A stretch of 63,762 nucleotides of DNA, the filler included. It is 13 parts of 13 records of this genome, joined end to end, with 100 filler letters (N's around TTAATTAATTAA, not from the genome) between each part and the next. Parts side by side here need not be neighbours in the genome. Positions count along the whole stretch, not along the records: positions 35,508 to 46,982 come from SRR9670534_1192; 12 more parts are not named here. The stretch is one strand, 5' to 3'. Position numbers and translations under genes: made by a program. Position 1 is the stretch's first letter, and the number at the start of each line of letters is the position of its first letter. This document shows, in pieces, positions 16,126 to 60,588 of the stretch. The notes under the pieces were generated by a model. The model had not been told where the DNA came from. It was given only the letters and a program-made list of their open reading frames with translations, and did no database searches.

Positions 16126-17315
16126 ATAAAGGAAAGGCAAATGCATACATTGTACTTTTGTTATTATTTACTAAAGGACAAAAACATACTTGTTCTTTAG
16201 CTCAAAAAATAATGTTCAGATATACCAAAGTTATGTAATTACTTATATGGCATGCATTTACTTGTTTATGCAAGTTCATTAATATGCAATTTCGTTATTA
16301 ATTATAATAGTAATGCTCCATGGAGTCCATAAGCAATACTAAATAATAACTTAAAACCTGTGCCTTCTATTGAAAACTAGTAACTTTATTAAATTAATAT
16401 CCAAACTCTTGTAAGAAACATTCATGTAAAATTTTACATAAGCATTTCAATTATTTCCGCGTTAACTACTATTATTAGTTATATTTTATAAATGTGATTG
16501 CTCTTTCAATATAGAGATGGAAAAGAGTTTGCGTCACTGGTATTAGCAAGCACTACTGAGCTGATAATTATCATTAGGCTATTTTTATAAATATGTCATC
16601 ATTAATAACAAATGTTATTACTTTCATGAACAAATGNNNNNNNNNNNNNNNNNNNNNNNNNNNNNNNNNNNNNNNNNNNNTTAATTAATTAANNNNNNNN
16701 NNNNNNNNNNNNNNNNNNNNNNNNNNNNNNNNNNNNATAACACAGTTATATACATTATGTATTATATTGTTGTTCTTACTTACATTTATTATTATTAAGC
16801 TATGCAAAGTTATAAACCTTCTAAAATGGCTTCAAATGCCATTTTTTCGATTTTGCGTCCCTATATCTCACCGTCACGTGCATATGGGCCGCTAACTAAT
16901 ATTTTATAATTCTATCTGAGAATTTCTCCATAATAATGAGTCATTATCATTCAAACTTATAAGTGACATCTTTTTTATTAAATTGGCTTTTCGCTCTATT
17001 TGGCCAATATGATAATCAATATGGTACAACCATTGTGATGGCATCTTATACATCTTGTACCATTAGTAGTATGCAGTATTTCGTTTTGGAATAGAACTAC
17101 ATGTGTGTCTGTACTTTTTGATAGATTGTTTCTGGCTAATAAGCATAACCCAACCGTACAGTATAAACTGTAAAAAAACCTTGGTGCAACCAATGGGTTG
17201 GCCTAGGGATTCCTAACAATCACCCCAGTTATGGAAAGCCTTTTAAGGATACGCAAAGAAACAAGTATTCATCGCAGGACTAGATAAATTTGGGAAGACT
17301 GATTTTAAAGAAACT

Positions 17316-18553
17316 ATGCTGAACTTGTTCAATACTTTATCAATAAATATTAAAGAAGACTACCATGAAGTCCTTCAGAAGATGGAGCTGATAATCTGGA
17401 GAAGTGGATTTACGAATTTTTATCAAGACTTCAGGAAAGCGTTTTATACAAATGATGTTTTGCCCAAAGGAGAACTTGAAAATATTGATAAATATAGAGC
17501 CCAGGATAAAAATAGCAAATTTTTCTCTATTTTCTCTAAATTTGTCACCAAAGATAGATTCAAAGAATTTGTAAAAACTTTGCGAGAAAATGACTCAGAT
17601 AAGATGTATCCAAGTATTACTGATGAAAAGAAGTTAATGATGCTCGATGATAGAAAAGTTGTCCTTTTATGTAAAAGTGATTTGGGTTCAGAAGTATCAT
17701 GGGAACTGATTGGCTCTGGAGCATTTTCAAACGTTTACAAACTGAAGAGTAGAACGTTTGGTTCTTGTGCTTTCAAAAAATTTAAACTGTTGTCAGAAGT
17801 TTTTGATAGTAACTTGTATCAACTAAAGCCACTTTTCAGAAACAAAATTGATTACGAAATAGCATTGGCATCAAAAATAATCCACATAAACTGTGTAAAA
17901 GTGTACGGCTATGTATCAGATGTTAACTGCTACGGCTTTATTCAGGAATTGTGCCCTCTTGGTTGTGCTGAAGATTATATTTGTTCCCACAGTGTTTGCA
18001 TAGCAGACAAGTTAAAGTGGATCCAAGAACTGTCAAATGCTGTTGCTTATTTACATGGTCTGAATCCAGTTATTCTTCATAATGACATTAAAGCTGCAAA
18101 TTGTCTCTTATTTCCAGTAATTGATGAGGAAATAATGTTGAAACTTGGCGATTATGGTTCAGCCGAAATGCTACTTATTACTGCAACTTTAACTAAAAGT
18201 GAGGTAAGGATGACGCCAACGCATTGTCCTCCAGAAATTCTTTCGAAAATGGGCAAAATTAGCAAATCCTCAGATATTTATCAAATCGGCATAACAATTC
18301 ACGAAATTTTAGTGCTTAAGCCAAAGGCAACAACAGCGTTTTCATTTAGCAGTCTGTCAGGATCAGATCTCACGAGTGATCTTTCCAAACAACTGTCTTC
18401 TCCTCTACAAGATGGATTAAGCCGGGTTGTAAGTTGTATTCTGGCTGAAGAGCCAGCAGAAAGACCAACTGCAAAAGAGATAGCTGATATCTTTGAAAAA
18501 GTTTCACACAGAGAGTTTGGGATTACTATGGCTGAAGAACCATTAGTGACAGG
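17316..18553 (+). CDS. TKL/RIPK-like non-RD protein kinase with N-terminal CARD/death-fold-like helical domain
   Basis: IGSGAFSNVY, CAFKKF, ILHNDIKAANCLL, LGDYGS, HCPPE, SDIYQIG, ERPT. N-terminal ~100 aa are helical. The exon ends at a phase-1 donor ACAG|gtatgt. Confidence 0.85.
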
Positions 18554-25624: not shown

Positions 25625-27081
25625 CTAAATAGTTATAATTATCTTCAATTTTACAAGGCTCTAATATCTAGAATACTTTATATTTTAGATTTATAATATC
25701 ATAATAATAATGCTAATTATTTCGATGGATAGATGCATGGTTGTTGTTAATAATGAATTTTTAAAAGGGTTGCCAATTTGATTTAATAACTAGTTTGAAC
25801 AATCCACATACGAGTAGGTGTGAATAATGTTGATATAATGGGGGGCAAAAGCTGTACTCCATTTCAAAGTGCTAACAAGTAAGCATTTTTGTGCATGCTC
25901 CAATGTAGTGTATCAGTGATAGTTGATACAGCAGTTGCAATGCAGCGATAATAGTATATTATGTCGAAGTTTGCANNNNNNNNNNNNNNNNNNNNNNNNN
26001 NNNNNNNNNNNNNNNNNNNTTAATTAATTAANNNNNNNNNNNNNNNNNNNNNNNNNNNNNNNNNNNNNNNNNNNNCTTTTTTATTATTTCATATCACTGG
26101 CTGTTTGAACATGTGTATTTTGTCCTTTCATTTTTTATCTGTTCGTCTTAGCAAGCAAACTTTTTCCACCATGGAAATTCCATGAACATTCACTAACTAA
26201 CACATACGCAAAGCTTTCTGGTAAAATTTTTTGCTACACTTTTATTATTGTTGTTATTATATAACTATAGTTATAACCAGTACCTATATATTTTAAAAAT
26301 ATTGTCATATTAGGTCCTAATAATTAGGGTTTTTGTCGTATAGAACATTTTTCGCTAGGATTTGTTTTGGAAGGCGGGTTAGACAAGATGTCGCCAGCCC
26401 TATTAAACCCTTTTGCAATGAAATTAAGATATCTACCATAAAGGTTAATATCATATGGTTGTCTTAATCTCATAGTAAAAAGGTGATCTTTTGATTACAT
26501 ATGTTACCACTATTAAACGTGTATTTAATAAGAATAATATTATTATTTGTAATTTATTCTATGTAGATATGCTGCCGCCGTATTGTTATACGCGAATAAT
26601 TCCAAAAAGAGAAGAGTCATGATCAATGCAGGCACACACAAACCGTGCTTTGATATTGTAGATAGATAATGTGCAGGTACGTATCAACGTCGTATCTTTA
26701 CTAAAGATTCTTTAGTGCTAGCTATTTATAATGAATGGGCTGTATGTTTACCCTTACATTGTAGTGTCATTACCTATAAATTTGGTTGACCCACCCTTAG
26801 TAGCAAGATGTTACATACTATACAGTTAAGCTTACCTGTCCTGCCATGTCTACCTTTCTGATTTTTATATCGATAGTGTGAATTTTGTTTACCTGTGCTT
26901 ATTTTTGCCATACCTTGTGTATATGAAATGAATGCAGTAATTATATCGAATGTTTGATCTTGTGTAGCTAACGACCACAAGTTGTTATAACAAATTATAA
27001 TATCGTATGTTAATGATATATGGATTCTATAAATAAAATATTATATACAGTGTTGTGTGATCAAATTTTGCCCATTATTAG

Positions 27082-28224: not shown

Positions 28225-28499
28225 NNNNNNNNNNNNNNNNNNNNNNNNNNNNNNNNNNNNNNNNNNNNTTAATTAATTAANNNNNNNNNNNNNNNNNNNN
28301 NNNNNNNNNNNNNNNNNNNNNNNNTTGCTGTCATAGCGGTTTTTTAGTAGTACTTTAGAGCGTTTTTGCACGACCATAAAGCGTTTTTTCAAGAATCGAT
28401 GAGCTGGTGGTGTCTAAATGTATCAACTTTAATGTCCTCGCCTGTCCTCGTCCTTATTAAAAATGACAATTTGATAAGCTCACCAAATTGTTCTTCCAT

Positions 28500-29620: not shown

Positions 29621-30786
29621 GTACGTCCAGTGCATAGTATTTCTGTTGCAGAAATTCTATACACGGCTATATCGTATTATGGACATCCTGTACGTAATGT
29701 ACAAGCTGATAACGATGTTCTATGTATACTTAGTGCTAATTGAAATTCAATTTCAGACATTGTACATACTGTACTGTACCGTAATGCCATACTGCAATGC
29801 ACCATATTCTTAATATGATATTCCGGGTACAAGCTCCACTGTACTGTATTGTATTGTTTGAATGTTACATACAGTATCTAAGGTGTCTGCCATATAATTT
29901 GTAGGTATTTATTCAATATATGTACTATGTTTGAAATACGTTGCATTCAAACCATACTACACATTGTATTGTGTATGTACTGTTATAACTTTCATATTGT
30001 AGTAAATTTTTAAAAACAAAAAAGATGTCAGTAATGTACTTTGTCAAAATGGGCGCCAAATGAAAAAAAGTCACAAACAAGAGGTAATTGTAAGGTAAAG
30101 GAAACGCTTGAAATAAGTACACACCGCGTAAATAAAGAATGTTACAGTACTATTACAGTAATACTACTACTGTACCATCTGTACCTACTGTACCAGGTAC
30201 CTACTGTGCCTACTCAGTAGGTCCTACTGTACAGTGTACCTTCTCTAATATGGTATCATATTTAATTAAATTATTTAATTTAAATTTCATGTTTACATTC
30301 AGGTAAATATATTATTTCATTTGCAGCTGCTACAGTAAGGAATCTTTGCTAATAAGGATGCAATAAAATCAAAGTTATTGATTGATAATAATGATACAAC
30401 AAATTCGTTCAAATTCGTGAAATCATTGTCANNNNNNNNNNNNNNNNNNNNNNNNNNNNNNNNNNNNNNNNNNNNTTAATTAATTAANNNNNNNNNNNNN
30501 NNNNNNNNNNNNNNNNNNNNNNNNNNNNNNNTTATTATGCTACCGTTTGCACATAAACAACTTTTTAAGTGATATTGTAAATGGATGAAGTTGAAATTTT
30601 TTAGTAACAACTACACAACTAAATTATAAATCATTGTAACGCAGTGATTACATAATACATAACTATATTACATAATAGTATTAAATATTGCATGATAGAA
30701 AGTTTAGAATACAACAATAGCATGTAAATATGTTAATCCTATTCTATAAAATAGACAAAAATAAAGAACAATAGAAATGTTTGCTC

Positions 30787-35139: not shown

Positions 35140-36292
35140 GTAAGTGATTTGGAGCTATCACCATAATAATCGTTATTATTATAGCATAATATAGGTGTAG
35201 CCTAATTTACATAGGCCTATATGATAAGTACAAATTATGTGAAGAAGCATAAAATTTAGTAAAACTAATTATAGATAAATTTTTATAAAATATAGTGAAA
35301 AATGAAATGTAATTATTAAATAAATATAAATATGTGAAAATTTAACATAATTGTGCTAAATATTATATTGTAATATAATATATTAAATATATATATATAT
35401 ATATATANNNNNNNNNNNNNNNNNNNNNNNNNNNNNNNNNNNNNNNNNNNNTTAATTAATTAANNNNNNNNNNNNNNNNNNNNNNNNNNNNNNNNNNNNN
35501 NNNNNNNAGTACTAGAAAAATTAGAGAAAATTTAGAATAATACCAAAAATAATCAAAACAAAGCAAAAAAGTTGGAAAATAAGTAGAAAAAATTACTGCT
35601 AATTCAATAAAAAAAACTAACTGTTGGATATCATAGTATGTAGCCTATCATAGTATGTAGTACATAGTATGAAGCTATGTACAGTATGTACATAATGTAC
35701 TACATAGTGTGTACTATGAAAGTATGAATCATAGTCTGTGATAGTGCCTTTGTACTAGCATTTCGCGATATTGCGGTGGAATAATTGTACATACCTACCA
35801 TGCATTTAGAACGATAGCTGTAAGATACAGCTCGTAAGTTACCCCCATTGTCCAGTATTCTAGAAGCGACTGCAATGAGTGCATCTTTTGAAGAAAGTAA
35901 TTTGAGGTGCGGTATATCAGCAATCAATCATTATATATCATTCTGAATTATGTACATATTATGATTAGAATTAATTATTATTATTAATACATAACTATTA
36001 TTATATGTACTCATTATCCGTCACTCGTGCAGAATGCACTTTATTAATTACCTAATTATTATTAATAGTAATCAGTAAGCCTACTTATTTACATATAGGT
36101 ATGTCCATAGTAATTACCTGGGCTGATAGGTTATAACCAACTTGGTTAAACCAAGTGAACTTGATATCATGATACATAGGTACCTACCTATTTTATGCTT
36201 GGGGTGATAGATTGCATGTTATTATTATGGCTGCTGGGAATAGAAATCCTTCCTTGGGTCCTAAGTTAGGACTCCTAACTTAGAACTCCTAA

Positions 36293-36337
36293 GGCTTATG
36301 CATAGCATAAGAGAAATGCATAGAGTATGGGCTTATG
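36293..36337. mobile_element. 29-bp CATA...TATG insertion with perfect 8-bp TSD
   Basis: GGCTTATG [CATAGCATAAGAGAAATGCATAGAGTATG] GGCTTATG. Confidence 0.55.
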
Positions 36338-36615
36338 ATCATCGAGCATACCTGTATGCAAGGGCACTATGTAGTAGTAATGTGAAGTCTTCACAGTGAA
36401 GACTGCAATTTATGCAGAGCCTAGCAAACTCATTCATTGTACCAATGTACTGTAATAAAACCTATTACAGTAATTCGAACAATTTCCTTGGCAATTTTTG
36501 ATTAGGCGGCTTTGTCATTGTCATTCTGTCGACATTCTGATCAAAACTTACGTAGTATTTTCCTGAATTTCTGGCGATGTGTCTTATAATAAGACTCTTA
36601 TTTTGATCACCTATA

Positions 36616-36669
36616 GGCATATCCATAGACCTTCAATTTATTCGGGGATTGAAGGTCTATGGGCATATC
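36616..36669. mobile_element. 38-bp CA...TG palindromic insertion with perfect 8-bp TSD
   Basis: GGCATATC [CATAGACCTTCAAT-10nt-ATTGAAGGTCTATG] GGCATATC. Confidence 0.75.
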
Positions 36670-37125
36670 TACTCGTCTCTCTTCTAGCTCCATGACTCAT
36701 CGCAAATCCACCTTCAAATAGAGAATTTCTCAACATTTACTTGTTACAGGTAGCATATATGACCTTGTTTGCATCGAATGTATACTTACCTTACTTCTTT
36801 ACTATCAATTGATAGTAATACTTGTTAGGTAATACTTGCGCTTTTCTATTACAGTGTAACACTATATGGAAGAATCGTTGTAACGATTGATATACCAAGC
36901 ATTGCAATAAACCAACTTGATATACCAAGGTTGTGTATGCAGCAATACTATTATATATGAGTCATTAGTTAGTAACGATACAGCTCATTTACATTCAAGA
37001 CACTACTCTATATTTGCGTTGCGTAGTTAGCGCCGCTAACTTACAATTAGTAGTGGGCAATTTTTTTTATGCTTGATTAGTAGTAATCAATGATTACTGT
37101 TGAATAAGTACGTACTTTCTTCTAG

Positions 37126-38536
37126 TGTACAGTTCTCCCAGACAGACCTTGGATATGTCGAACATGTCGAAAATCTGGAAGCAGAACCATTTTTTCATGG
37201 CCAAATTAGCCGATATGAAGTGAATGAACGATTATCCAGTGGTGTTATTACTGAAACTCCAGTACAATGTGGTGATTTTCTGATTCGGGAATGTGAAAAT
37301 AAGATTATCGGAAGCCGTAAGTTTTGCACCTAACTTTGCACCTTACTTACTATTATGAATCTAAGCCCTGTGCTTTTTCTACTAAACGAAAATTTTAGAT
37401 GCTTATTGTTTGGTTGTAAGAGTTCCAGCCAGTTCCGGAGGTCCTCTAGACAACAAAACAGAAGAATGTTCAAAAACTTTTAAAATTTACCAGTCCTATG
37501 ACACGGGGGAATATTTCATTCAACGGGAAAATCGTCGTCTTTTCTTCCCATACTTACGAAATCTAATTGAGCATTACAGACAAAGTTTCCTTAACAGTAA
37601 AACTGAAATGCTTTTAAATTACCCTTGCCCAAAACCTATATTTTGGATTAATAGAGAGGACGTGAAATTTTCAAGAAGAATGGATGTGGCCACCATCTAT
37701 GATAAGCAATATGCGGTCAAACGTTTTGCCAATGGTGATAATGAAGATTATGTTAAAACCAAAGTGGAAAAGCTTCTAGAATTAAGACATGAAAACATTT
37801 TGCCAATTCTGGGGGCGTGTATTTCTCAAGCTGAAACGATCTTGTTTTACAAGTATTTTTCAGACTCGTGCATTGATATGCAAGCTTTTTTAAAGAGTGA
37901 AAAACCGAACCTTAAGAAGTCAGGGAAAGATAATGAAAAGTTGCTTCGTTACTGCCATCAGGTAATGTGCTGTAAAAAATCCGAAATTCTTAAGAATTGA
38001 TTCCATTTTGTAGATTGCCACTGCGATGGCGTTTGCTGAAGCTAGAAATATTGTTCATGGTAATTTGGACATATCGAATTGTATATTAGTAAGGGATAAT
38101 AACGTGGTTAAGGTTGCAAATTTTTCACTATACCGTTTTGAATCAACCTCTATGGTGAACGAAGCTATTTCTGCTCCTGAAGTTATTACAACCCAACAGT
38201 GCACACTGGAAGGAGATGTTTGGAGTTTTGGTGTATTGTGTTGGATAATACTTTCCCTGGGTAAACTTATATAAAAATTATGATAGATATAATATTATTA
38301 TTAGAATACAACAATTTTTAGGAATCTCGGAGAAAATGACTGTTGATAAAATAAGGAAAAGTGCTCCTCCAAAATACTGTTCCTTCAATGTTTATGAAAC
38401 AACTGTTTTGAAGTGCTGCAAGGCGGAGGCAGCGCAGCGTCCTACATTTTTTACCCTTGAACAAAATCTCAATAATATTATTGCTTCTGATAGATCTGTT
38501 ACCAGTACTATAAGACAAATGTCTAGTACTTTGTAA
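37126..38536 (+). CDS. SH2 domain + tyrosine-kinase-like pseudokinase (Fer/Fes-like layout), 4+ exons
   Basis: SH2: FFHGQISR..V..RL, GDFLIRE, F..LRNLIEHY, L.YP. Kinase: YAVK, LRHENI, VHGNLDISNC, VKVANFSL, SAPE, DVWSFGVLCW, RPTF. Confidence 0.82.
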
Positions 38537-38765
38537 TGGTTTTATAGAAATATCTTAAGATTTGAGATTCGATTTTTTAATAAGGTTTAATTGTATGGTA
38601 TTCAAAAGTTATGTATGTCTTTTTAATTAATGACTACGTAACTTCTGTGTGTTTGGCTGATCAGAAAACATATATTCGAATAATAATGTATTCATATGTC
38701 TATTTTGCATTCAAACGGGTAGATATCATAAGGGTGTAATTTTGTACCTTTTTAGCGTGTTTAAA

Positions 38766-40224
38766 ATGCCAGGTACTCCAAACATTTACGTTGAAGTTTT
38801 GGACGAATTAAAAGACAGTATTAAAGATCGAATTGCTCTTGAACCTATCAGCTATCTTGTGAAATTACAAGAGCATATAAAAGAAATCTCACCACAGACT
38901 GTAGACCAGCTCTGCCAGAAAGGTCATCGAGAAATGGCAGCAGAAATTTTTGATATCGTTAGAGGTGGCTTCCATGAATTTGCTGAAAAATTTATCAAGA
39001 ACATTTTACTAGTGAAGTTAAAAGAAACTGATGAACTTCGAGTACAAATCCAAAATATTTTTGACATGCCTCTTCGACAAGACGATGATTGGAGACTACC
39101 TTTGATTTCCATAAAAAGTGAAGTTGTATCTAAATATCCACACTTTTTTTTCGATATTAAGGGAGCTGTTTTGGCCGTTGGCATTTTAGATCAAATAGAT
39201 GTTGGAAAAATTGATTCTTTAAACAACGAGCAACAACAAAACGAGGCCTTCTTTAATGAGCTTAGTCGAAGTAGAAATAATGAAAAAATTAGAAAATTTT
39301 TGAGGGTGTTACATGAAAGTGGAACATATGCTTATCTTGCAAAAGAAGATTTTTTGATGAAAACTCAAGGTGGTCATATCAGTTACTTCGTGAAGAAGGA
39401 TTTAAAATTTTTAGACACTCCAATTGCAGAAACTCCAAGGTCTGTTATTCATAAAGTAATGGTGGAGAGTTTGGGTTATTGTGTTTTCAAAGAGTTCAAG
39501 GAACAGGCAAAATACCAAACAGATCCCCTTGATCCAACTACGGGAAGTGTTGAACTAAAAACACACGTGGAAAGGGTTCGTGTCTTGGCAAGCAAATTAT
39601 GTCTGAACCGCTATTGTGTTTCTGTATGGGGGATTGTTTCTGGTAGTGGTTGTTTTGGGTTTTTGGAAGAATACTGTGAGCATGGTGACATCATGAAATA
39701 TCTGCATTCAAATGAAGTGTTATTGCATTTCAAAGTGAAATGGACTAGACAGATATTTAATGGCGTTTCATTTCTGCATTCTTTTATTCCGCCGATAATC
39801 CATAATGATATTAAAGGGTCGAATTGTTTCCTTTTTCAGGCAGGGGATACTATTGTGGCAAAGTTGGGGGATTACGGATCTGTTCGAATAGACTTCTTTA
39901 CCAATGAAACTCAAAAAATATATGCCACCACTTCACATGCTGCTCCAGAAATTCGAGCACAAGGCGCAGGAAAAATTGAATCAGACATTTATGCATTTGG
40001 AGTGACTTTCATGGAAGTTATTAACAATGACGTAATTTTGGAATTGGGGGAAGTACAAAGAAAAACACTCGAAGCATTGGATACACTAGATTGTTATGTT
40101 GGAAAATATAACAGGAAAACCTTGAATAACATGTTAGATGATGATCCAAGTAACAGACCTAAAGGCGGAGCTATTCAAACTGCACTTGAAGATTTGGAAG
40201 AAAAGCTTCTGCCAAAGGAACAGG
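38766..40224 (+). CDS. Non-RD TKL/RIPK-like kinase with two N-terminal death-fold-like domains (exon 1 of a kinase-MATH gene)
   Basis: CVFKEF, EYCEHG, PPIIHNDIKGSNCFL, LGDYGS, HAAPE, SDIYAFG, RP. Phase-1 donor CAGG|gtatgc at 40225. Confidence 0.85.
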
Positions 40225-40414
40225 GTATGCACTGAATCACTGTTAATAATTATACTTAATAAGTTAGTCTGTCTGAGTGTCTCAATAGACGTCACGTTTC
40301 TTTTTGAAATTTTACGAGTAGTTTCATAACTTTTTTACGTACAACATATATACAATAAGAGTTTTATCACTGATAAATTATCAGATGATTACTTGGTATA
40401 GTTTCGCATTTTAG

Positions 40415-41301
40415 CTGACACTTTTGATCTCTTTTTGACTGAACACGCATCTACAAATTTATGTCCACACTTCATTTTTGGCCCATGCTTAGCAATTGAT
40501 GAAGTGAAAGTGTTACTGAAAGCATTTTATTCAATAAATGAACGCAAACAATGTGTCAAATTTGGATTATGGCCAGTTTATGCACCTAAAGAGGCATTTC
40601 CTATGAGGATTTCTTGGTCATGGAAATCTAGCAAATCTTCTGAACCTGAAAATTCTAAAGAACATATCTTCGAAAAGCCATGGCCAAAGGGGTTCGATTT
40701 GTGTCCACGGGTAGACTTTAGATCTTCTTTTGGATTCAGAAATAATGATGTTGATCTCTTCTGCTTTGACATGAAAGTTACAAACATAAATGATACCGAT
40801 ATCACTTCTGCTCCTAGCAGGATGAACTTGCATAAAAGCAGAATTTGGCAAATGAGATTGACCGCAGAATCTAGCAGACCTTGTTGTAGCAATGATGCAG
40901 GATTATCAATTAAACTTGGTGAACATCAAGGGGAGTGGTTACTTGAAGTGCATCCGGATGGCTATAAAAGTACTGAAGGAACCAAAGGCAACTATGTCTC
41001 AGCCTTCATCAAATCAAATCCTGGTACGCTAAGAGAAAAGGCCAGCATAGCGTATTCTATTAGAATTATCAATAAAGATAATGTTACTTGTGCTCAAAGT
41101 ACATTCCGAGATGAAATTAATCCATCACCTATGCCATTTTTAAAAGGTGATATTTTGTTTGAGGAGACATGTCTTTTTCAGCCTGACAGAGGATTGTCTG
41201 GCAGTAGTAATTTAGTTTCACTAAAAGATATAACATCCTTTCTTCATCGTAATTGCCTATATATACAGTATGGAGTTCGTCCTTTGTCCAAAATTATTTA
41301 A
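40415..41301 (+). CDS. Tandem MATH/TRAF-like domains (probable exon 2 of the kinase gene)
   Basis: GEWLLEVHPDG...YVSAFIK...YSIRII...FLHRNCLYIQYGV is MATH-like, with a more divergent first copy (EHIF...GF...FRNNDV..FCFDMKV). Acceptor ttttag|CT at 40414 keeps frame. Confidence 0.7.
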
Positions 41302-41377
41302 CTTTTAAGTATACCTATGTTCGAGATATATATCGAAATATATATTTTACAAAATATTATTTGGTTATTCTTACTAC

Positions 41378-41403
41378 AAGTTTGACCTTATAAGGTCAAA
41401 CTT
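41378..41403. repeat. Perfect 26-bp palindrome
   Basis: AAGTTTGACCTTA|TAAGGTCAAACTT. Confidence 0.85.
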
Positions 41404-41734
41404 ACTGTAATACATGTCTCAACTTTTTTTTATGTTTTCAAATAATGTATTCGGAATAATTCTTTTGTTTATTTTACACTCTTGAGATTGTTAAAATGAC
41501 ACTGCTTATCTTTCATATTTGATGAAAATATGATTTCCCACTGTTTTTAGGATAGATTTTTTTACTAATATGGATAATTCCTAATTTTTTAGGTTAGATT
41601 TTTAGAATTGTTAGTACTACTTTGTCGTGGATATCGAATACAATAATAAATAGGAGTTAGATTTATTGGCTGTCTTTTCAAGCTTTATAAATTATAAATT
41701 ACAAATTGTAATTTACAATAACCATCTAAATAAT

Positions 41735-43565
41735 CTAACACCATCCAGGCTGCCAAGTACCATTCCAGTTTACAGGATTAGCTTCTTGAACTTCTTCATA
41801 AAATTCAGGAACATAGACAGAATTCTCCACTGCTTCGACATAGAAAACAAGTAATAGATTGTACACAATTTGAACATGTTCGTTATCTGCAATATTCATC
41901 ACTTCATATGGATCATTCTCAAGATTGAATAAATAAATATCTTCAGGCACTGTGGATGCTGCAGATGCTGAGGATGCGCCAGCTGCACCCGAACAATCGC
42001 AATTTGAAACAGCGTTTGCGTCGTCTGCCATATCCAAAGGTGTCATCCAATTTGCTGAATCATAATGATAAATCAATTTAAATGAATCTACGATGACAGA
42101 CCCTTGGTCCGAACTTGAAGAAATCATTAGAGCAAAGTTATTTCTTAAAGTTTTGGTGTTGTGTATAAGGGTATCTGAATTATCAATCCCATCTAAATTT
42201 GTTGGCAAGTCAGAAGCATCACCAAAAGTTAATTTGGCTATTGATGGAAAGAGGTCTTCAAGTATGAAAAATTCTTGACTAATGTAATTAGTTTTTGACA
42301 AGTTTGGAGCATAAAAAATAGCTGGAACACGAGTACCACTCTCAAATGGAAGAGATTTGCCTCCTCTGAATGGGTAAGCTATTCCACCTGTTGCAGGACC
42401 ATTGTCTGAAGACCACCATATGATTGTATTATCCCATAAATTGTTTAATTTTAGTGTTTTGATGATGTTACCAATTGCACGATCCATTGCATATACCATG
42501 GCCATATGGCGTTTTCTGCAGTCATTTTCAATGTACAAGAATGGATTTATGTCAGATTTTTTAACCTGCAGTGGGACATGTGGTGTTGGGAAAGCCACCA
42601 TTAGTAAAAATGGATCACCAATTGTTGCCTTTTGTTTGATGTAATCCTGAGCCACCTTTCCAAAAAGATCAGGTGCTATAATTTAATAATTAAATTTGAC
42701 ATATACAAAGCGTAGAGGTACGCTTTGGACATATACGAAGTCATTAAAAATTAATAGCTATTATAATTATTTAGATATTTCAAATTAGTTATAATTATGT
42801 AATCAAATTAAATTATTAATATTTATTTAAAATTACTAATACAATATTGGTTTTCAAATCCGTAAACTGGTAACGTATCATTCCAAAAATCATATCCCTC
42901 ATATTTATCCTCATTACATCGTTGACATGACATGTGATCCATATAATCTTCAAACCCATTGAAATATCCGAAATGGTGTTTAAATCCTTTGTAGGTCGGG
43001 GTATATTCCCATTTACAAAAGCCGAGATGCCATTTACCTATGAAAATATTGTAATTACCGATATTTTTGTAAATTAATTAATGATGTTGAATCACCGATT
43101 AGGAAGGTATCATATCCCTTATTCGAATAATATTCAGCCATGGTAGGGTATTCTGCTAGCAACCCATATCGTTGACAGGCGGAATATTCGGCCTCATTTA
43201 AACCAAGTTTATGTGGATAAATTCCCGTTAGGAGTGCTGCCCTTGATGGGATACATGTGGTGTGAGTGTGCAGGTTATCAATAATCACGCCTTCCTGAGC
43301 CAAGGATACCAAATTTGGTGCTAAGGGATGATCGAGTCGTGCATTCCAGGGAACATCGCCATATCCTACACAACATATCAAATATATTAGTATTATTCAT
43401 AATTAATAATAATAATGACTTTATTTTGAAATGTATGTTTTAACATATACCCAGATCATCTGCAAACAAAATGACTACATTTGGAGTTTTGGTAGATAGT
43501 ACTATCGCTATCATATGGCATAGAAGAGTTAGAATAACGTAGTGGTTGTAGTAATAACAGCTCAT
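41735..43565 (-). CDS. Arylsulfatase (ARSB/ARSI/ARSJ-like), multi-exon
   Basis: Signal peptide; PNVVILFADDL|GYGDV, CIPSRAALLTG (formylglycine motif), GKWHLGF, PHVPLQ, SDNG, RGGK, LFNLENDPYE. Confidence 0.92.
42698..42735. mobile_element. 22-bp CA...TG palindromic insertion with perfect 8-bp TSD, intronic
   Basis: GACATATA [CAAAGCGTA-GAGG-TACGCTTTG] GACATATA. Confidence 0.7.
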
Positions 43566-44444
43566 TCTGATATGTACTTGGTATTGTAAAACCATGGACC
43601 ACTTTATACCACCTTATGTCATTAGTAGAATAATATAGGAAGAAATGAATGATAAAATTTCTATTGTTTGCATGTTGTTTTCTATATACATTTGTTACAG
43701 CAACAAAAGACCAAAAGACAAGTTTGCATTATTAGTAGTAACAAAAGAGGATTACGCCTGTGGAATTGAATGGCCCAGTGGGGTGAGTCTTAGCAAGCAA
43801 AAAGATGTCGGTAGCGATAGTTGCATGGACATCTTAGTTGTTACTATTGTTACTAATCATTAGTAACATTATGATAATTCATTGAGCTTCACATTCTTAG
43901 CTTTGAATATTTAATAATATGTATTATAAGTTATAATATTTGATATTTATAATGTTTAATTATTATGATTATTATACATTTTTATAAATCTGGCATTAGT
44001 AATAAGAAACTCTGCCTTTCATTGTCACGTTTATCGTGACACCCCCGACTAGTGTAGTACCTATGTATGTATGTAGTACCTATGTATGTATGTACGTACC
44101 TATGTGTCGAATATCTGAACAGTCTCCTACATAATATTCTTCGTGTTATTTTGTGTTTATGCAACAAACTTGATCAAATTATTCTACTTCAATCACTGAA
44201 GTACATTATCTAGGTACCACATTGATTACTAATCAGTGGCAGTGCTAGTAATCCTTGACTACTGATTCTGCAAGATACCACAGCACTACAGCAGTGCCTA
44301 CTTCTCATATTCATAATAATTAACATTCAATAATTGATTAATTAAAAATAATCAGTTTGGGTATGCGTATCCATTGTATTAATACATATATAGTCGCTTT
44401 GCAACGTAACTTTAGTAGCATAGCTATTACCTAAAGATTTTTAT

Positions 44445-45680
44445 ATGATGGAGGAAGAACCGCTAAATTTTATTAATAATGCCGGTTCTTCTCTAGCTCA
44501 ACTAATGTACACCAATCTCTCTGTTGGCCAATTAGACAACTTAACAAAGATGGTTTTAGAAAATATTACTTACTCTTTGCTGAAAGAAACTTCACTGCAA
44601 AACTATGTTTTGTATGCCACAACTATTGGAAAGATTTTCCATCCACTCTTTTTGGTACTGGCTATAGTATTCAATACACTAATAACTGTAACTATACTGA
44701 AAGGGAGTCTCTACAAAAATTCGCTTTTTGCCTCCCAGATAGCTTTATCTATATTTGACACGAGTGTTATGCTGTTCACGTGCGTCCCCAATTGGACAAT
44801 GTACATGTGGCCAGAAAAGTATGGAAACTTTACCAAAGAATATTCATCAGTTTATGGAAGTGTCATTGCAAGTGGTACCTATGCATCAAATTTTGGTGCT
44901 GCACACATGATATTGTTGACTTCTGCAGAAAGATGGGTTGCTGTTTGGTTTCCAAAGAAATTGAAGGCTTTATTTTCTAGCAAAAAAATGGTGGTCATAA
45001 TATTACTCATATCCCTCTTTGACATAGGAGTTGGTACACTTTTTGGATCTGTTTACAATGCTGGAGAAGAAACTGGGGTGTGTTTCAAAAGTGGCCCATA
45101 CCCTTTCATTTCAACAGTATTCTTTGCTTATAGAAGTTGGATACCAGTGACTGGCATTTTGGTTTTTTCATCTTTAACGAGCTTAAGAATATTTAGACAT
45201 ACGGAGGTTTTTAGACAAAATGGAATTGGAGGTAGAAGAAGAGCCAGATTACTTAGAGCCACGAAGACGATTCTTATGGTTGCTTTTGTCTATGTAATAT
45301 TACTAACCCCTCATGATATGATAACATATTTTTGGTATTGTCAAGTCACAACAATTGATGGGCTTATCAAAGCAAATTTCGCTTTATCAATTTCAATACT
45401 GTTTTTGTTTACAAATCACACGGTAAATTTTGCCATTTACTTCAACACTGATACAAATTTTAAAAAGGCTTTTGGTCTCGTTCTAAGGTCTGTGGGATGC
45501 AACATCTTTCCATTAAGTCACCTCAGTGCTATAAGCAGGACAGTGGCTAGCCCATATCTTCATAGTGAAGATAGAAATGGTTTAACTACTATAAATGTTA
45601 CAGAAAAAAATTGTTTATTAATAAGTACATTAAATGTTGCTGGTAATAATAGCACCATGGAAACTAAGGAAAATAGTTGA
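44445..45680 (+). CDS. Intronless class A GPCR, peptide-receptor-like (FMRFamide/MIP-receptor grade)
   Basis: Seven hydrophobic segments; N in TM1, LSIFD, SAERWVAVWFP, IP in TM5, NHTVNFAIY, FKKAF. Confidence 0.85.
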   Translation: MMEEEPLNFINNAGSSLAQLMYTNLSVGQLDNLTKMVLENITYSLLKETSLQNYVLYATTIGKIFHPLFLVLAIVFNTLITVTILKGSLYKNSLFASQIALSIFDTSVMLFTCVPNWTMYMWPEKYGNFTKEYSSVYGSVIASGTYASNFGAAHMILLTSAERWVAVWFPKKLKALFSSKKMVVIILLISLFDIGVGTLFGSVYNAGEETGVCFKSGPYPFISTVFFAYRSWIPVTGILVFSSLTSLRIFRHTEVFRQNGIGGRRRARLLRATKTILMVAFVYVILLTPHDMITYFWYCQVTTIDGLIKANFALSISILFLFTNHTVNFAIYFNTDTNFKKAFGLVLRSVGCNIFPLSHLSAISRTVASPYLHSEDRNGLTTINVTEKNCLLISTLNVAGNNSTMETKENS

Positions 45681-46739
45681 AAGATTGCACAATAAATTAT
45701 TTTTTTATAATCATATTTGTCACAGGTTATGATACAAAACAGATACCATAATGTCACCCGTTTTTGTATTGGCCTACAAAAATATATTTACATTATAGGC
45801 CTAGTATATTTGTTGGCCTAATGGTTGTTACAGCTAAATTTAAACTTTTTCTGATCCATAAAAATTGTACGAATTAGCTGTTATCATTTATTTGAAGGCA
45901 CTGCCATTTTGCTTTATTAACCTATAAAATAAAAAATGCAATTATATTATTTGGTGTGGGCCAATAGTAGCATTATTTTATGGGGGACATTGTGCATTGT
46001 TGTTCAATTTATTTTCTATTGTTTAGTTTACTTTTGTTCCTTATTTATTTTAGATTTTTTTTCATTCTAATACTTCATTTTTGCTATAGTCATGTATTTT
46101 ACATTTTTGACTAATTAGCTACGAAAATGATAGCCTAGCATCTAGATGATGCCACCCTCTACTTGACACTTTATTATTGTATTTGACATTGCTAATTAAT
46201 AATAATAAGATTTTAACCTTGCTAGCGTTTACAAAATACATTATCTCTATAATTAATAATAATAATAAGTCTATAATTATTAGAAATGCATAAATATGGC
46301 AATAGTTGCTTATTAATTCATAATCACTCTAGATTGTTATTATTAATAGTGATAATAAAATTTAATATACATTGTGTTTGTCATAATTCTTAGCTAGAAG
46401 CAGTATATTTGTGTATTTTGCAAATGGCGGGAAAATAGCGACATCTAATTCCTGATTGTAAAACTACTGCATGCCCTCTTATAGCATATCAAAGAGTAGT
46501 GACTGTAGTCCTTTATAGCCTATAGTCCTACTCACTGTCAATTATGTTTGAAACCTGTTTGTGCATGTGGACTATTGTTTGCGTTCACACAAGTCACTGT
46601 GTATTTGAAGGAACAGGTATATTGTTATTAACAATATAGGGCGATACCTTTTTACCTTTATTTGATTATTATAGAGCGATTACCTGTGTGCGATTTGCAG
46701 TTTTGAGGGCATTTCTGCCTATTTCACAATTCTGATAAC

Positions 46740-46982
46740 ATGTACGATTTGGTTAAGAATTTGTGTTGTGATCCTCGAATTTACCTGGCTCTGGTTGGTT
46801 TATACCTTGGTAGAAATATTCCCCGAGGCCTGTTCAACATTTTTCGTTTATTTGTTTGGAGAAGAATTTTTCCGGTGGACTTGAAGAAATATGGTGAATG
46901 GGCAGGTAAGAAACACGATTAATTGGGATTATTGTTATTAGTTACTATTCTAATAATTAGCTATTTTTTAGTAATTACTGGA
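46740..46982 (+). CDS. HSD17B12/KAR-like short-chain dehydrogenase, 5' end only
   Basis: N-terminal membrane segment, then DLKKYGEWA|VITG across a GT-AG intron; cut by the spacer. Confidence 0.78.
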
Positions 46983-47082
46983 NNNNNNNNNNNNNNNNNN
47001 NNNNNNNNNNNNNNNNNNNNNNNNNNTTAATTAATTAANNNNNNNNNNNNNNNNNNNNNNNNNNNNNNNNNNNNNNNNNNNN

Positions 47083-51414: not shown

Positions 51415-51975
51415 AAAAGGTGAATATAATTGTTCAGTGACTGCTGGAATTTAGGACAAGTTCTTTCCTGTACAAGAAGCATTTCTCACAATAAAATTTT
51501 CTATTTTTTTATTAAAACATTTTTAGGTAGTATAAAAAATAAACTATAATTTAAAATTATTATATATGTGTAATGTATATGTGTATAATTATGGAAGGAC
51601 TGAATGAAACATTGTAAAGGTATGGTTGCAAAAAATGGAGATTGGGGCATTTTATTACATCAGACTTTATTATTAGGGCTTTTGTTAAAATTTTTGTTAT
51701 TATTAATAGATAATAAAGCCTAATTCAGTTCTTGCTGAGCAGGTGAAAAGCTATGTTCTGCTGAAAATAAAAAAGAAACCAATTTAGATTTCGGAAGACA
51801 TTTTGAATTTTAATAAAATTTTATTAAATTATTAAATATTTTTAAACTTTATTAAAGTTATTTTGAATGTATTATNNNNNNNNNNNNNNNNNNNNNNNNN
51901 NNNNNNNNNNNNNNNNNNNTTAATTAATTAANNNNNNNNNNNNNNNNNNNNNNNNNNNNNNNNNNNNNNNNNNNN

Positions 51976-52144
51976 GCAGAAGACGGGCGAGAAGAAAGCC
52001 AAGAAAGAGGCGCCAAAAAAAGAAGTGGCAAAAGAGCAAAAGGCAAAGAAAATAAAAAAAGAAACGCCCAAAAAAGCTGTTTCGCCGAAAAAAGAATTAG
52101 CAAAAGAGCAGAAGGCAGGCGAGAAAAAAGAGGTTAAAAATTAA
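51976..52144 (+). CDS. Lys/Ala/Pro/Glu-rich C-terminus of the gene before secY (positionally rplO)
   Basis: Frame QKTGEKKAKKEAPKK...SPKKELAKEQKAGEKKEVKN* ends 3 nt before the secY ATG. Identity is from synteny only. Confidence 0.5.
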
Positions 52145-52147
52145 ACT

Positions 52148-53491
52148 ATGAGTGGAATATTAAGCATCATTCGCGTATCAAGTTTAAGACAGAAGATCTT
52201 ATTTACATTTATGGCGATAGTGATTTATCGAATAGGAACTTATATTACAGTTCCTGGAGTTGACCCTGTTGGTCTAAAAGATTTTTTCACAAGTTTAGGA
52301 GGAAAACCTATTGGAGGGATTCTCTCTTATGTGGATCTTTTTGCTGGTGGCGCGTTTCAGCGTTTTACCATTTTTGCTTTGGGGATTATGCCATATATTA
52401 CGGCATCCATTGTCTTTCAATTGCTGATACCTGTGGTTCCTTATTTTGAGAGATTGCGACGAGAAGGAGAGCAGGGAAATATTAAAATACAACGTTATAT
52501 TCGATATTTAACGGTGCTAATTTGTCTTGTTCAAGCTTTTGCGATTAGTCGTTGGGTTGCCTCTTATGACGGAGTAATTGCTTCTGAGATAGAGCATAAC
52601 ACGTATTATTTTAGTTTGTTATTGGTAACATCTATGACTGCAGGAACAATATTTCTCATGTGGCTTGGTGAGCAAATCACAGAGAGGGGCGTGGGTAATG
52701 GTGTTTCACTTATTATTTTTGCAGGAATTGCAGCGCGAATCCCTGCAGAGTTTTTGAGAACTTTAGAGCAAGTACAGAACAGGGAATTAAATCCTGTTAG
52801 TTTTATATTATTGTTAATGATATTTGTGCTTATTATATTTTTTGTAGTGTATGAGCAAGGAGCGCAAAGAAGGATTCCCATACAGCATATGAAGAGAATT
52901 GTAGGCAGAAAGCTTTATGGGGGTCAAGGAACCTATTTGCCATTTAAAATTAATCCCACAGGAGTAATTCCGATTATTTTTGCAAGTGCAGTAATTATGC
53001 TTCCTACCCAATTAGTACAGATGTTTGGAGAGCGATTTCCGGGACTTACTGCGGTAGCAGCGTCATTTTCTCCAGGACAGATGCCTTATATGATATTTTA
53101 TAGTATGTTAATTATCTTTTTTGCCTACGTATACACGACGGTCCAATTTAATCCCGTAGATATTGCGGAAAATCTCAAGAGACAAGGAGGGTATATTCCA
53201 GGAATAAGGCCAGGATCTCATACCCAAGAATATATAGCGGCAATTTTATTTCGAATCAGCCTAGGTGGAGCGATATTTTTGGCTCTTGTAGCGATATTTC
53301 CTGATTTACTAGTCAGGTTACAATTTTTTTCTGGGATGAATATTAATTTTGCCTATCTTATGGGGGGCACATCCATATTAATTTTGGTATCAGTAGCCCT
53401 TGATACTATGAAGCAAGTAGAATCCCAATTATTAGAAAGGGATTATGAAGGATTTTTAAGTGGGAAACGTTCTTCGAGGAGAAGACGTTAG
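52148..53491 (+). CDS. secY: Preprotein translocase SecY
   Basis: IFALGIMPYITASI, WLGEQIT, GNGVSLII, GVIPIIFA, IPGIRPG, GGTSILI. Confidence 0.98.
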   Translation: MSGILSIIRVSSLRQKILFTFMAIVIYRIGTYITVPGVDPVGLKDFFTSLGGKPIGGILSYVDLFAGGAFQRFTIFALGIMPYITASIVFQLLIPVVPYFERLRREGEQGNIKIQRYIRYLTVLICLVQAFAISRWVASYDGVIASEIEHNTYYFSLLLVTSMTAGTIFLMWLGEQITERGVGNGVSLIIFAGIAARIPAEFLRTLEQVQNRELNPVSFILLLMIFVLIIFFVVYEQGAQRRIPIQHMKRIVGRKLYGGQGTYLPFKINPTGVIPIIFASAVIMLPTQLVQMFGERFPGLTAVAASFSPGQMPYMIFYSMLIIFFAYVYTTVQFNPVDIAENLKRQGGYIPGIRPGSHTQEYIAAILFRISLGGAIFLALVAIFPDLLVRLQFFSGMNINFAYLMGGTSILILVSVALDTMKQVESQLLERDYEGFLSGKRSSRRRR

Positions 53492-53494
53492 ATT

Positions 53495-53716
53495 GTGAGC
53501 AAAGAAGAAAGTATCGTAGTAGATGGAGTGGTTATAGAGCCGTATTCCAATGCTATGTTTAAGGTAAGACTTGAGAATAACCAGGAGATTTTATGTCATA
53601 TTTCTGGGAAAATGCGTATGTTTTATATTAAAGTTTTACCAGGTGATAGAATAAAGGTTGAATTATCCCCTTATGACTTAACAAGAGGTCGGATAATTTA
53701 CCGCTACAGAAATTAG
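53495..53716 (+). CDS. infA: Translation initiation factor IF-1
   Basis: [13 protein letters not shown]...[13 protein letters not shown]. Confidence 0.98.
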
Positions 53717-53729
53717 GAAGGAAAGATTT

Positions 53730-53843
53730 ATGAAAGTAAGAAGTTCTGTGAAAAAGATTTGTAAAGATTGTCGAATAGTCAGAAGAAAAGGAGTTGTCCG
53801 CGTGCTTTGTAAAAATACACGGCATAAACAACGACAAGGATAA
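53730..53843 (+). CDS. rpmJ: 50S ribosomal protein L36 (below ORF-track cutoff)
   Basis: [37 protein letters not shown]. Confidence 0.97.
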
Positions 53844-53854
53844 AAGGAGAGATT

Positions 53855-54235
53855 ATGCCACGTATAGCAGGAGTTGACATACCAGGATCGAAGAGGGTAG
53901 AAATTGCCCTTACCTATATTTATGGGATAGGTCCTACACGTTCAAAAGAGATTTTAAGTGCGTGTGAAATTGGATTGGACAAGAGAGCCCGGGATTTAAA
54001 TGAGGCGGAGACGAAGAAAATAATGGATTATCTCAACCAAAATTACAAGGTTGAAGGAGAATTACGAAGTGATGTAACCGCATCTATTCGCAGGCTCATT
54101 GAGATAAAATCCCATCGGGGTATGTGTCACGTTCGAGGCCTTCCTGTTCGAGGGCAGAGGACAAAGACAAACGCACGGACGCGCAAAGGTCGCACAAAAA
54201 CAGCTGTTGCTGGGAAAAAAATGGTTCGGAAATAA
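53855..54235 (+). CDS. rpsM: 30S ribosomal protein S13
   Basis: [35 protein letters not shown]. Confidence 0.98.
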
Positions 54236-54246
54236 GGGGTGAGATT

Positions 54247-54639
54247 TTGGTAAAGAAAAAAGACACTAATAAACGAAAAAAGATAAAAGAAAAAGTAACA
54301 AGGGGAATTGTTCATATCCAAAATAGCTTCAATAATACAATTGTTACCGTTAGTAATATGAAAGGCGGAGCCATTGCATGGTCATCAGCAGGAGCATTGA
54401 ATTTTAGGGGAGCGAAGAAGAGTACTCCTTTTGCATCTCAAAGTGTAGTTGCTAAGGTGATGGATGATGCCCTTCGCTTTGGCTTACAAGAAGTGATAAT
54501 TTTTGTTAAAGGGCCGGGATTTGGAAGAGAAGCAGCCATTCGAGCTGTTGTCAAATCTGGCGTGAGGATAACGGAGATTCGTGACGTTACCGGGGTTCCG
54601 CACAATGGATGTCGACCCAGAAAATTGCGAAGGCCTTAG
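54247..54639 (+). CDS. rpsK: 30S ribosomal protein S11
   Basis: [35 protein letters not shown]. Probable TTG start at 54247. Confidence 0.97.
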
Positions 54640-54651
54640 AGGGGAGTAAAT

Positions 54652-55635
54652 ATGCTTGTAAATAAATTAGTTCGAGATTTTATTAGACCAAAGTCGGTAG
54701 AATACAAGGAGTTAGAAGATAAAGATGGGATTTTTGTCTTTCAAAGTGCTCCTTATGAAAGAGGATATGGGATTACCCTTGGCAATACTCTTCGACGGAT
54801 TATGCTCTCTTCTATTCCAGGATATGCGATTATCGCGATTCAAAGTGAAGTTTTTAATAATGAATTTCAAAATATTGATGGGGTTTATCAAGATACTTTA
54901 GATATTATTTTGAATTTAAAAAGAGTTAATATTGCATTAAAAAATGATATTGATTCAAGGGTAATTCGCTTTGATATTGATGGAAAAAAAGATTTTTATG
55001 CGAAGAATTTGGCGGTAGATGGGGATGTTCTTGTGGGAAATCCTGATTTACTTCTTTTTTCTTGCAATGATAAGGCTAAATTTAGCTTTTCCCTTCAGAT
55101 AGAGAGGGGGTGGGGATATGTTCCTGCGACGGAGTTTGAGAAATTGAAGGAAGTGGCGGGAAGTGTATTAATAGATGCGGATTTTTCTCCGGTAAAAAAT
55201 GTTTCTTATGAGACGAAAGCAATTTTCTTTGAAGGAAGAGAATATGAAGAGCTCACTATGAAAATAGAGAGTAATGGAGTGATGTTAGCATCAGATATTT
55301 TAAAACAAGCAGCAGGGATATTAAAGGATTCTTGTGAGACTTTTGGAACTCTTGAGAAATTTAAGATTAAGCAAGTGGACCGGAGTGAAAAAACAGAAAG
55401 AAGTAATCAAGGAATTTTTTCAAGCTCAATATTTAAAGGGAATTTCACTGTAAGAACTTGTTTTTTCTTGCGCAATAATGACATTTTAGAAATGGGTCAA
55501 TTGGTGGTTTTAACGGAAAAAGAACTTCGAGAGAAGAAATTTTTTACAGAAGAAATCTTAGAAGACGTTAATAAAAAGCTTAGCGCAATACAATTAAAGC
55601 TTGGGATGAAAGACATTGCATATCAGGCAATTTAA
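54652..55635 (+). CDS. rpoA: RNA polymerase alpha subunit (divergent)
   Basis: PYERGYGITLGNTLRRIMLSSIPG, DIILNLK, G.GYVPA, IDADFSPV; located between rpsK and rplQ. Confidence 0.96.
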   Translation: MLVNKLVRDFIRPKSVEYKELEDKDGIFVFQSAPYERGYGITLGNTLRRIMLSSIPGYAIIAIQSEVFNNEFQNIDGVYQDTLDIILNLKRVNIALKNDIDSRVIRFDIDGKKDFYAKNLAVDGDVLVGNPDLLLFSCNDKAKFSFSLQIERGWGYVPATEFEKLKEVAGSVLIDADFSPVKNVSYETKAIFFEGREYEELTMKIESNGVMLASDILKQAAGILKDSCETFGTLEKFKIKQVDRSEKTERSNQGIFSSSIFKGNFTVRTCFFLRNNDILEMGQLVVLTEKELREKKFFTEEILEDVNKKLSAIQLKLGMKDIAYQAI

Positions 55636-55650
55636 GAAGAGGATTGGACA

Positions 55651-58234: not shown

Positions 58235-58251
58235 AAAAATAGTACTTTTTC

Positions 58252-58280
58252 TTGACTTAATATAAAAAGTATTCTAAAAT
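58252..58280 (+). promoter_or_regulatory. Sigma70-type promoter
   Basis: TTGACT-17 nt-TAAAAT, overlapped by inverted repeat TACTTTTT/AAAAAGTA (58243-58271). Confidence 0.7.
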
Positions 58281-60585: not shown

Positions 60586-60588
60586 ATT

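Follow-up and report, generated by a model that had tools for sequence, protein, structure and literature searches.

In vertebrates, the adaptor, the kinase of the IRAK or RIPK type, and the TRAF protein are three separate proteins. The IRAK/Pelle family, which mixes active enzymes and pseudokinases, combines an N-terminal death domain with a kinase; the TRAF6 that IRAKs recruit is a protein of its own. RIPK2 consists of a kinase and a C-terminal CARD, and RIPK1 of a kinase and a death domain. The MATH domains of TRAF-C and SPOP dock short peptide motifs. Here, we describe a locus in a stretch of DNA of 63,762 bases (the window, which joins 13 contig pieces) where two open reading frames (ORFs) on the plus strand encode a protein kinase and a MATH-like domain, respectively. 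The initial annotation of this locus had proposed that the two ORFs are spliced into a single protein with tandem death folds, a kinase of the non-arginine–aspartate (non-RD) type, and tandem MATH domains. Our preferred reading, to which we give about even chances, is that the two ORFs are two exons of one gene for a kinase–MATH signaling protein, in which a low-activity kinase or pseudokinase scaffold is slightly favored.

A predicted splice join between the kinase and MATH reading frames

ORF 1 opens with an ATG at 38766–38768, and its frame stays open until a TGA at 40233–40235 (...KEQGMH-stop). Codon 486 (CAG) ends at 40223, and G40224 opens a split codon that is directly followed by GTATGC. 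The candidate acceptor, ...GCATTTTAG (TTTTAG), ends at 40414, and exon 2 begins with CT at 40415. The split codon G+CT would encode Ala, followed by DTFDLFLTEH... up to a TAA stop at 41299–41301, giving a joined frame of 781 codons and a product of 781 amino acids (aa). This is the phase-1 junction that had been proposed (...KEQ-A-DTFDLFLTEH...), and on sequence grounds every one of its coordinates reads as claimed. We paired each GT in 39900–40235 with each AG in 40236–41000 and required an open in-frame join; among these pairs, 40224/40415 retains the most coding sequence and has a T-rich acceptor. The donor (AGG/GTATGC) lies 3 codons before the ORF 1 stop, the acceptor lies 13 nucleotides (nt) past the last in-frame stop, and the phases are compatible. 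The sequence between them has stops in all three frames.

The second ORF is coding-like well before it reaches a start codon. Its frame comprises 299 open codons, for which the composition of non-coding DNA nearby gives P about 1e-11, and is open for 67 codons ahead of the first ATG at 40603 (P 0.003–0.009, depending on composition). To score coding potential we used codon log-odds; the training set, drawn from Pfam-matched host ORFs and exon 1, came to 2,912 codons with pseudocounts counted in. The stretch without ATG, 40417–40599 (61 codons), scored +0.207 bits/codon in its own frame and −0.53 and −0.70 in the other two, compared with 0.218 ± 0.084 for trained in-frame and −0.407 ± 0.176 for off-frame reference windows of equal length. 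Exon 1, itself in the training set, scored 0.262 bits/codon, the intron −0.07 to −0.88, and flanking intergenic DNA −0.25 to −0.75. At the acceptor, the G+C content also rises, from an intron value of 0.28 to 0.35 in exon 2. Because the coding signal begins at the acceptor, where there is no start codon, exon 2 would need an upstream exon, and the kinase exon appears to be the only candidate in reach, with a donor in the matching phase.

Splice sites elsewhere in the window bear on the same question. The introns of the neighboring SH2-kinase gene, as deduced from its exon ORFs, are 52–81 nt long with donors GTAAGT, GTAATG, and GTAAAC and acceptors TTTTAG or TTTGTAG; the sites proposed for the join are in keeping with this usage. 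A paralogue on another contig piece ends at a phase-1 donor, ACAG/GTATGT (18552/18553), two codons before a stop and after the kinase; this like GTATG donor in the same phase counts for the join. We conclude that the splice join of the two ORFs into one gene is very probably real.

Domains of the predicted 781-residue product

That the first exon encodes a protein kinase, as initially annotated, is borne out by a match to Pfam Pkinase (PF00069) at aa 283–465 with an expectation value (E) of 7.1e-19 and 68.6 bits, well above the gathering threshold of 31.7. We placed the kinase residues by alignment of both copies, and of the paralogue with PLK2. The catalytic loop is of the Ser/Thr type, AAPE stands for APE, and the further features that had been described were all found in place (Table 1): the HND non-RD loop, whose counterpart in the paralogue aligns with the HRD of PLK2; the replacement of the Gly-rich loop by AETPRS, with all three glycines gone; and the retained Lys, Asp, and DYG.

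Several features argue against full catalytic competence. The Pkinase match spans only positions 59–252 of the 263 in the profile and leaves the N-lobe unaligned, an eight-residue insertion follows β3, and the αC Glu is out of register (V271 stands opposite the Glu of the paralogue, and E269 is two residues off). This shift, on which the initial annotation was silent, raised the odds of a pseudokinase. The catalytic set is accordingly incomplete: it retains Lys, Asp, Asn, and the Asp of DYG, with neither the Gly-loop glycines nor an αC Glu in register. Since the ATP-binding lobe appears degenerate and the catalytic lobe intact, we rate a low-activity kinase or pseudokinase scaffold as slightly more likely than a robust enzyme. 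In a phmmer search against PDB, the best solved relatives of the kinase were WNK1/3 (8e-15) and IRAK4 (3e-11), then PLK2, BRAF, ZAK, and TAK1. We see no specific RIPK or IRAK affinity in the sequence; the idea of a RIPK/IRAK-type kinase finds no support in these matches, as WNK1/3 outrank IRAK4 and the paralogue is nearest to PLK2 and Aurora A.

The paralogue is the only relative of the kinase–MATH gene found (31% identity over aa 122–419, E 1.5e-37 by tblastn; 30% over helical module 2 and the kinase together), and its alignment set the N-terminal limit of the kinase domain. It matches nearly the full Pkinase profile (positions 5–258, E 5.4e-29, 101.8 bits) and carries an intact GSGAFS, HND, DYG, and an αC Glu that aligns with that of PLK2. 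Its ILHNDIKAAN aligns with ILHRDLKLGN of PLK2 and its β3 Lys with the AAK lysine, and its best solved relatives, PLK2 and Aurora A, score about 1e-13. We regard the paralogue as a putatively catalytically competent member of the family with a canonical Gly-loop. Its upstream and downstream exons would fall outside its 2.4-kb piece, as would any MATH exon.

Exon 2 points to a MATH domain through several weak lines. Seven of ten distinct fragments matched MATH_2 (PF22486) with E between 3.2e-5 and 6.3e-5 (about 3.5e-5) and 23.7–24.6 bits; the matching fragments were 143–163 aa long, started between 40810 and 40870, and always covered exon-2 aa about 172–285 and profile positions 31–134 of 136. 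In the ESM-Atlas, MATH clusters rank first (score 0.93, 188/256 shared features), and MATH Pfam families occur in at least 28 of the 30 clusters closest to the query. A single-sequence AlphaFold model of exon 2 predicts 7–8 strands in its second half. Foldseek on this model returned meprin alpha at the top (E 3.2e-3) and the MATH domains of SPOP and TRAF4 at E 0.06–0.08, and on VIA re-alignment, TRAF1/2/6 or SPOP MATH domains made up 14 of the best 50 rows (model residues 142–290, Z 4.8–5.1, root-mean-square deviation 3.5–4.7 on a poor model).

Each of these lines has a point that weighs against it. The MATH_2 score (24.5 bits) lies under the Pfam gathering score of 32, no MATH family (PF22486 or PF00917) reaches its curated threshold, and fragments of 294 aa (the whole of exon 2), 173 aa, and 133 aa gave no MATH_2 match. 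The query has an ESM recognition value of only 1813, short of the range in which a high score counts as strong evidence, which weakens the Atlas result. The model itself is poor (predicted local distance difference test, pLDDT, 37.6), Foldseek found nothing on it at E ≤ 0.001, and the VIA MATH rows are tied with unrelated sandwiches (GH2, P19) at Z 5.0–5.4. A search of the MATH half against PDB sequences gave chance matches only (E ≥ 1). Because the weak Pfam, ESM-Atlas, and fold lines converge, we nevertheless consider one C-terminal MATH domain highly probable.

The proposal of tandem MATH domains is supported only in its C-terminal copy, by the sub-threshold MATH_2 match and the Atlas. The preceding ~140 aa of exon 2 had no Pfam match in six of six fragments and no PDB sequence match at E up to 10, and were barely probed by the fold search; the two halves of exon 2 show no mutual similarity (z = −0.49, Smith–Waterman with 500 shuffles). 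Pfam scans of either exon contained no RING, TRAF zinc finger, coiled coil, BTB, protease, or USP domain. The product would be a MATH protein and not a TRAF, because a RING, TRAF zinc finger, and coiled coil are missing from these scans.

The N-terminal ~200 residues had been taken for two CARD-like bundles. CARD_2 (PF16739) matches aa 8–67 with E 0.043 and 14.3 bits in a 486-aa query and E 0.0047 and 17.3 bits in a 215-aa query (cutoff 28.2), and gave no match in fragments of 100, 105, and 120 aa (two of five fragments matching overall). No death-fold family (CARD, DD, DED, or PYD) reaches its Pfam threshold in this region. The ESM-Atlas neighbors score 0.78, under the lead level, with CARD-bearing clusters at ranks 1 and 11. 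A single-sequence AlphaFold model is all-helical, with six helices at aa 7–100 (module 1, H7–21 to H89–100) and about seven at aa 112–192. Its poor quality (pLDDT 41.4) is a further point against our reading; the fold searches on it say nothing either way, because the model is too poor, and among the 50 matches listed by each, neither Foldseek (best E 1.7) nor VIA-wide (best Z 5.0) placed a death-fold chain.

Alignment with the paralogue, from aa 71 on, takes in module 2, which had no Pfam match in four fragments, nor in two fragments of the paralogue. TDRD7, which a two-sequence profile against PDB returned as a candidate relative of this module, was non-significant (E 0.2) and was rejected. 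The two helical modules show no mutual similarity (z = −0.64, Smith–Waterman with 500 shuffles), and hhalign of module 1 recovered only the 35 residues common to both inputs, which is uninformative. That at least one helical module is a death fold is a reasonable guess and not a finding, and we hold it only tentatively, at somewhat less than even chances.

Table 1. Coordinates of the predicted gene, its features, and other elements of the window
Feature	Position	Strand	Remarks
Exon 1	38766..40224	+	486 codons and first base of codon 487; encodes the helical N terminus and the kinase
Helical module 1	38766..39080	+	aa 1–105; six predicted helices, low-confidence model
Helical module 2	39081..39365	+	aa 106–200; common to paralogue
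Protein kinase domain	39408..40163	+	aa ~215–466; non-RD, degenerate N-lobe
AETPRS replacing Gly-rich loop	39426..39443	+	opposite GSGAFS of paralogue
β3 lysine K242 (CVFKEF)	39489..39491	+	same in both copies
Catalytic loop H346-N347-D348	39801..39809	+	non-RD, then IKGSN (N353)
D369-Y370-G371 instead of DFG	39870..39878	+	
Predicted intron	40225..40414	+	190 nt, GTATGC...TTTTAG, phase 1, G+C 0.28
Exon 2	40415..41301	+	rest of codon 487 (two bases), then 294 codons and stop TAA
Region between kinase and MATH	40415..40839	+	about 140 aa, strand-rich in poor model
MATH-like domain, C-terminal	40840..41283	+	Pfam-matched core 40930–41271
Paralogue exon	17247..18552	+	helical module 2 and kinase; other contig piece
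Upstream neighbor, SH2 and tyrosine-kinase-like gene	37094–38536	+	four exons
Downstream neighbor, sulfatase gene	41738–43396	-	
Linkers	2517–2616, 8658–8757, 14257–14356, 16637–16736, 19138–19237, 23301–23400		
Linkers, continued	25976–26075, 28225–28324, 30432–30531, 35408–35507, 46983–47082, 51876–51975		

Relatives and genomic setting

Searches for relatives recovered little beyond the kinase core. A word-indexed protein search with exon 1 scored 8000 candidates and gave three remote kinases, with 22–24% of the query covered; the same kind of search found nothing for N-terminal residues 1–215 (0 of 1198 candidates) or, against longer proteins, for exon 2 (0 of 999). Exhaustive phmmer with exon 2 against 1.84 billion representative proteins gave one match (E 1.1e-4), a 4471-aa bacterial LapA/RTX repeat adhesin, which we rejected as spurious because a 34-residue stretch was matched 15 times. 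Pattern scans yielded one locus from 143 pattern matches in prokaryotic genome contigs and, in JGI metagenome contigs, none of 589 and then nine loci of 187. All ten contig loci match the kinase core only (aa 293–438 at most), and none matches the N terminus or exon 2 (best exon-2 E 0.096). The best locus (903–2123 of a metagenome contig, L002) encodes a bacterial-type membrane-anchored Ser/Thr kinase adjoining a helix-turn-helix gene. Its catalytic loop is PPIIHNDIK (non-RD, HND), so HND is not unique to the family of the kinase–MATH gene. The lack of a homologue of like architecture in the collections searched denies our reading comparative support. By sequence, neither flank of the kinase appears to have a detectable homologue, which would make this an orphan family; the proteins of the source organism are evidently outside the searched collections, so that sampling may account for part of this orphan status.

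The contig pieces of the window are separated by identical linkers of 44 N-TTAATTAATTAA-44 N. Adjacency over these linkers is artificial, and genes on different pieces are therefore not to be taken as linked. A Pfam scan took in 106 ORFs from a set of 116 with a length of 75 aa or more; the ten outside it were the two ORFs of the kinase–MATH gene and eight antisense ORFs that overlap this gene, the paralogue, or the SH2-kinase gene. The scan placed animal-type genes on six of the first 12 pieces, with LARGE-like GT8+GT49, Rpp20, TGF-beta, the UNC80 C terminus, tetraspanin, SH2 with tyrosine-kinase-like, sulfatase, and ANF-receptor families. The piece at 51976–63762 is bacterial, with a SecY-S13-S11-RpoA-L17-PriA block, ABC transporters, an IS1595-type zinc ribbon, an iron-containing alcohol dehydrogenase (Fe-ADH), and a glutaminyl cyclase. 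Apparently, 12 pieces are eukaryotic and one is bacterial. The record is a mix of host and bacterial DNA, a pattern that arises when host sequence ends up in the bin of a bacterial genome. The kinase–MATH gene sits on a eukaryotic, probably animal, contig. Gene callers that follow bacterial rules would cut this gene into two.

The gene lies on the 11.5-kb piece 35508–46982, between an SH2/kinase-like gene and a sulfatase gene. The SH2-kinase neighbor has HGNLDISN in its catalytic loop where HRDLAARN is expected, and is probably a pseudokinase because the catalytic Asp is replaced. Within 38750–38768, an acceptor-like TTTTTAG stands 10 nt before the AAAATG start of the kinase–MATH gene; it could be a candidate acceptor for a 5′ untranslated region intron or for trans-splicing. 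Together with the 230-nt gap to the stop of the SH2-kinase gene, this site would fit operon-like packing. Further along the same piece, 44424–45680 (plus strand) holds a single-exon ORF of 418 codons with several hydrophobic segments and ERW and NFAIYF motifs, which we take to resemble those of a rhodopsin-type G-protein-coupled receptor; it had no Pfam match at E ≤ 0.001. On the piece at 8758–14256, the long ORFs 9286–10272 (plus), 10459–11337 (plus), and 12295–13341 (minus), of 329, 293, and 349 aa, likewise matched no Pfam family at E ≤ 0.001.

Mode of action, alternatives, and comparison with known systems

If the join is real, the product would be a soluble protein of 781 aa, because no 19-aa Kyte–Doolittle window exceeds 1.39 (exon 1 peaks at 1.27, exon 2 at 1.39), with ~200 aa of α-helical modules, a divergent non-RD kinase fold, a ~140-aa region, and one C-terminal MATH domain. 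By analogy with TRAF-C and the MATH domain of SPOP, we postulate that the MATH β-sandwich would dock on short peptide motifs of a partner and that docking would tether the kinase fold and helical modules to a signaling complex. The helical modules may mediate protein–protein assembly, and the kinase fold may serve as a weak enzyme or scaffold, perhaps beside the canonical paralogue. Splicing, docking, the scaffold role, and any link to immunity are what we infer, and an immune role is suggested by analogy only. A statistical association between non-RD kinases and innate immunity has been described (PMC8463890, in the portion available to us); this association assigns no function to the 781-aa protein.

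The same fused protein could instead be a fully active non-RD Ser/Thr kinase that tolerates its odd Gly-loop and phosphorylates partners recruited by the MATH domain. It retains K242, D348, N353, D369, and an APE-like AAPE; purifying selection is the simplest reason for retained catalytic residues, and the paralogue is canonical. Yet none of the three Gly-loop glycines is left, V271 occupies the αC Glu position of the paralogue with E269 two residues off, and the Pfam match begins at profile position 59 with the N-lobe unaligned, so that we consider full activity rather unlikely. A more radical alternative dispenses with the fusion: a kinase gene would end at KEQGMH-stop (40235), a separate MATH gene of 233 aa would start from the ATG at 40603, and the splice signals would be coincidental. 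The ORF track does read this way, no fused homologue was found in the collections searched, and genes are tightly packed on piece 35508–46982, where only 230 nt separate the SH2-kinase stop from the ATG at 38766, which speaks for two genes and against one. Such a split would leave 62 open and coding-like codons stranded ahead of the ATG at 40603, a G+C step exactly at the acceptor, and a strong donor precisely where the kinase ORF ends, as in the paralogue, with matching phases; we regard it as very improbable.

The reading first offered for the locus goes further than ours: a pair of CARD-like death folds, a non-RD kinase, and a pair of MATH domains, each pair in tandem, would form a one-polypeptide adaptor–kinase–TRAF module of innate immunity. 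It can draw on the weak CARD_2 match at aa 8–67, the CARD-bearing clusters among low-scoring Atlas neighbors, the roughly 6+6 predicted helices, and the shuffling of death, kinase, TIR, and MATH modules in invertebrates (PMC5094078 and PMC8195603, as far as the available portions describe it). The CARD match, however, is sub-threshold and seen in two of five fragments, module 2 has no match at all, the helical modules are mutually dissimilar, as are the halves of exon 2, Pfam scans revealed neither a second MATH nor TRAF zinc fingers, a RING, or a coiled coil, and the matches of the kinase single out neither IRAK nor RIPK. We judge this module very unlikely in its full form. A broader version, in which a death-fold-type oligomerizing head, a non-RD kinase or pseudokinase, and a TRAF-like MATH domain form a self-contained unit of a highly divergent family from an unsampled invertebrate lineage, also seems unlikely to us. 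The kinase–MATH protein with a low-activity or pseudokinase scaffold is the reading that we retain. If the join is real, it would represent a natural kinase–MATH fusion, possibly with a death-fold head; such a fusion argues for the fused modules working together and adds to the picture of invertebrates freely recombining signaling adaptor modules.

Unique, lineage-specific arrangements of kinase, death-like, and MATH modules have already been described in invertebrates, which makes shuffled architectures of this kind a natural comparison. According to the portions of these reports available to us, sea-anemone NG3 combines a kinase with death and TIR domains (PMC5094078), TRADD-N proteins have variable kinase, MATH, or SH2 tails (PMC8195603), and MATH domains have expanded in invertebrates such as planarians (PMC6109357). 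A helical N terminus followed by a kinase and a MATH domain is not among the architectures described in those portions, and our literature searches turned up no description of a helical head, kinase, and MATH; architecture databases, which were not queried, may hold it.

The 781-aa protein resembles each of the established systems in part. Like TRAF, SPOP, USP7, and meprin, it would end in a MATH-like β-sandwich; unlike them, it has a kinase in front of the MATH domain, and a RING, zinc finger, BTB, protease, or USP domain was undetected by Pfam. It differs from RIPK1 and RIPK2 in its reversed domain order and in showing no specific kinase similarity to them, and resembles them in architecture only, as a kinase that shares its chain with a homotypic adaptor module, here a putative one. 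It differs from IRAK/Pelle in that its N terminus has no significant death-fold match, WNK1/3 rank above IRAK4, and the MATH domain is part of the 781-aa chain, whereas the order of a helical interaction module and then a kinase, with IRAK4 among the better solved matches (E 3e-11), is where the likeness to IRAK/Pelle lies.

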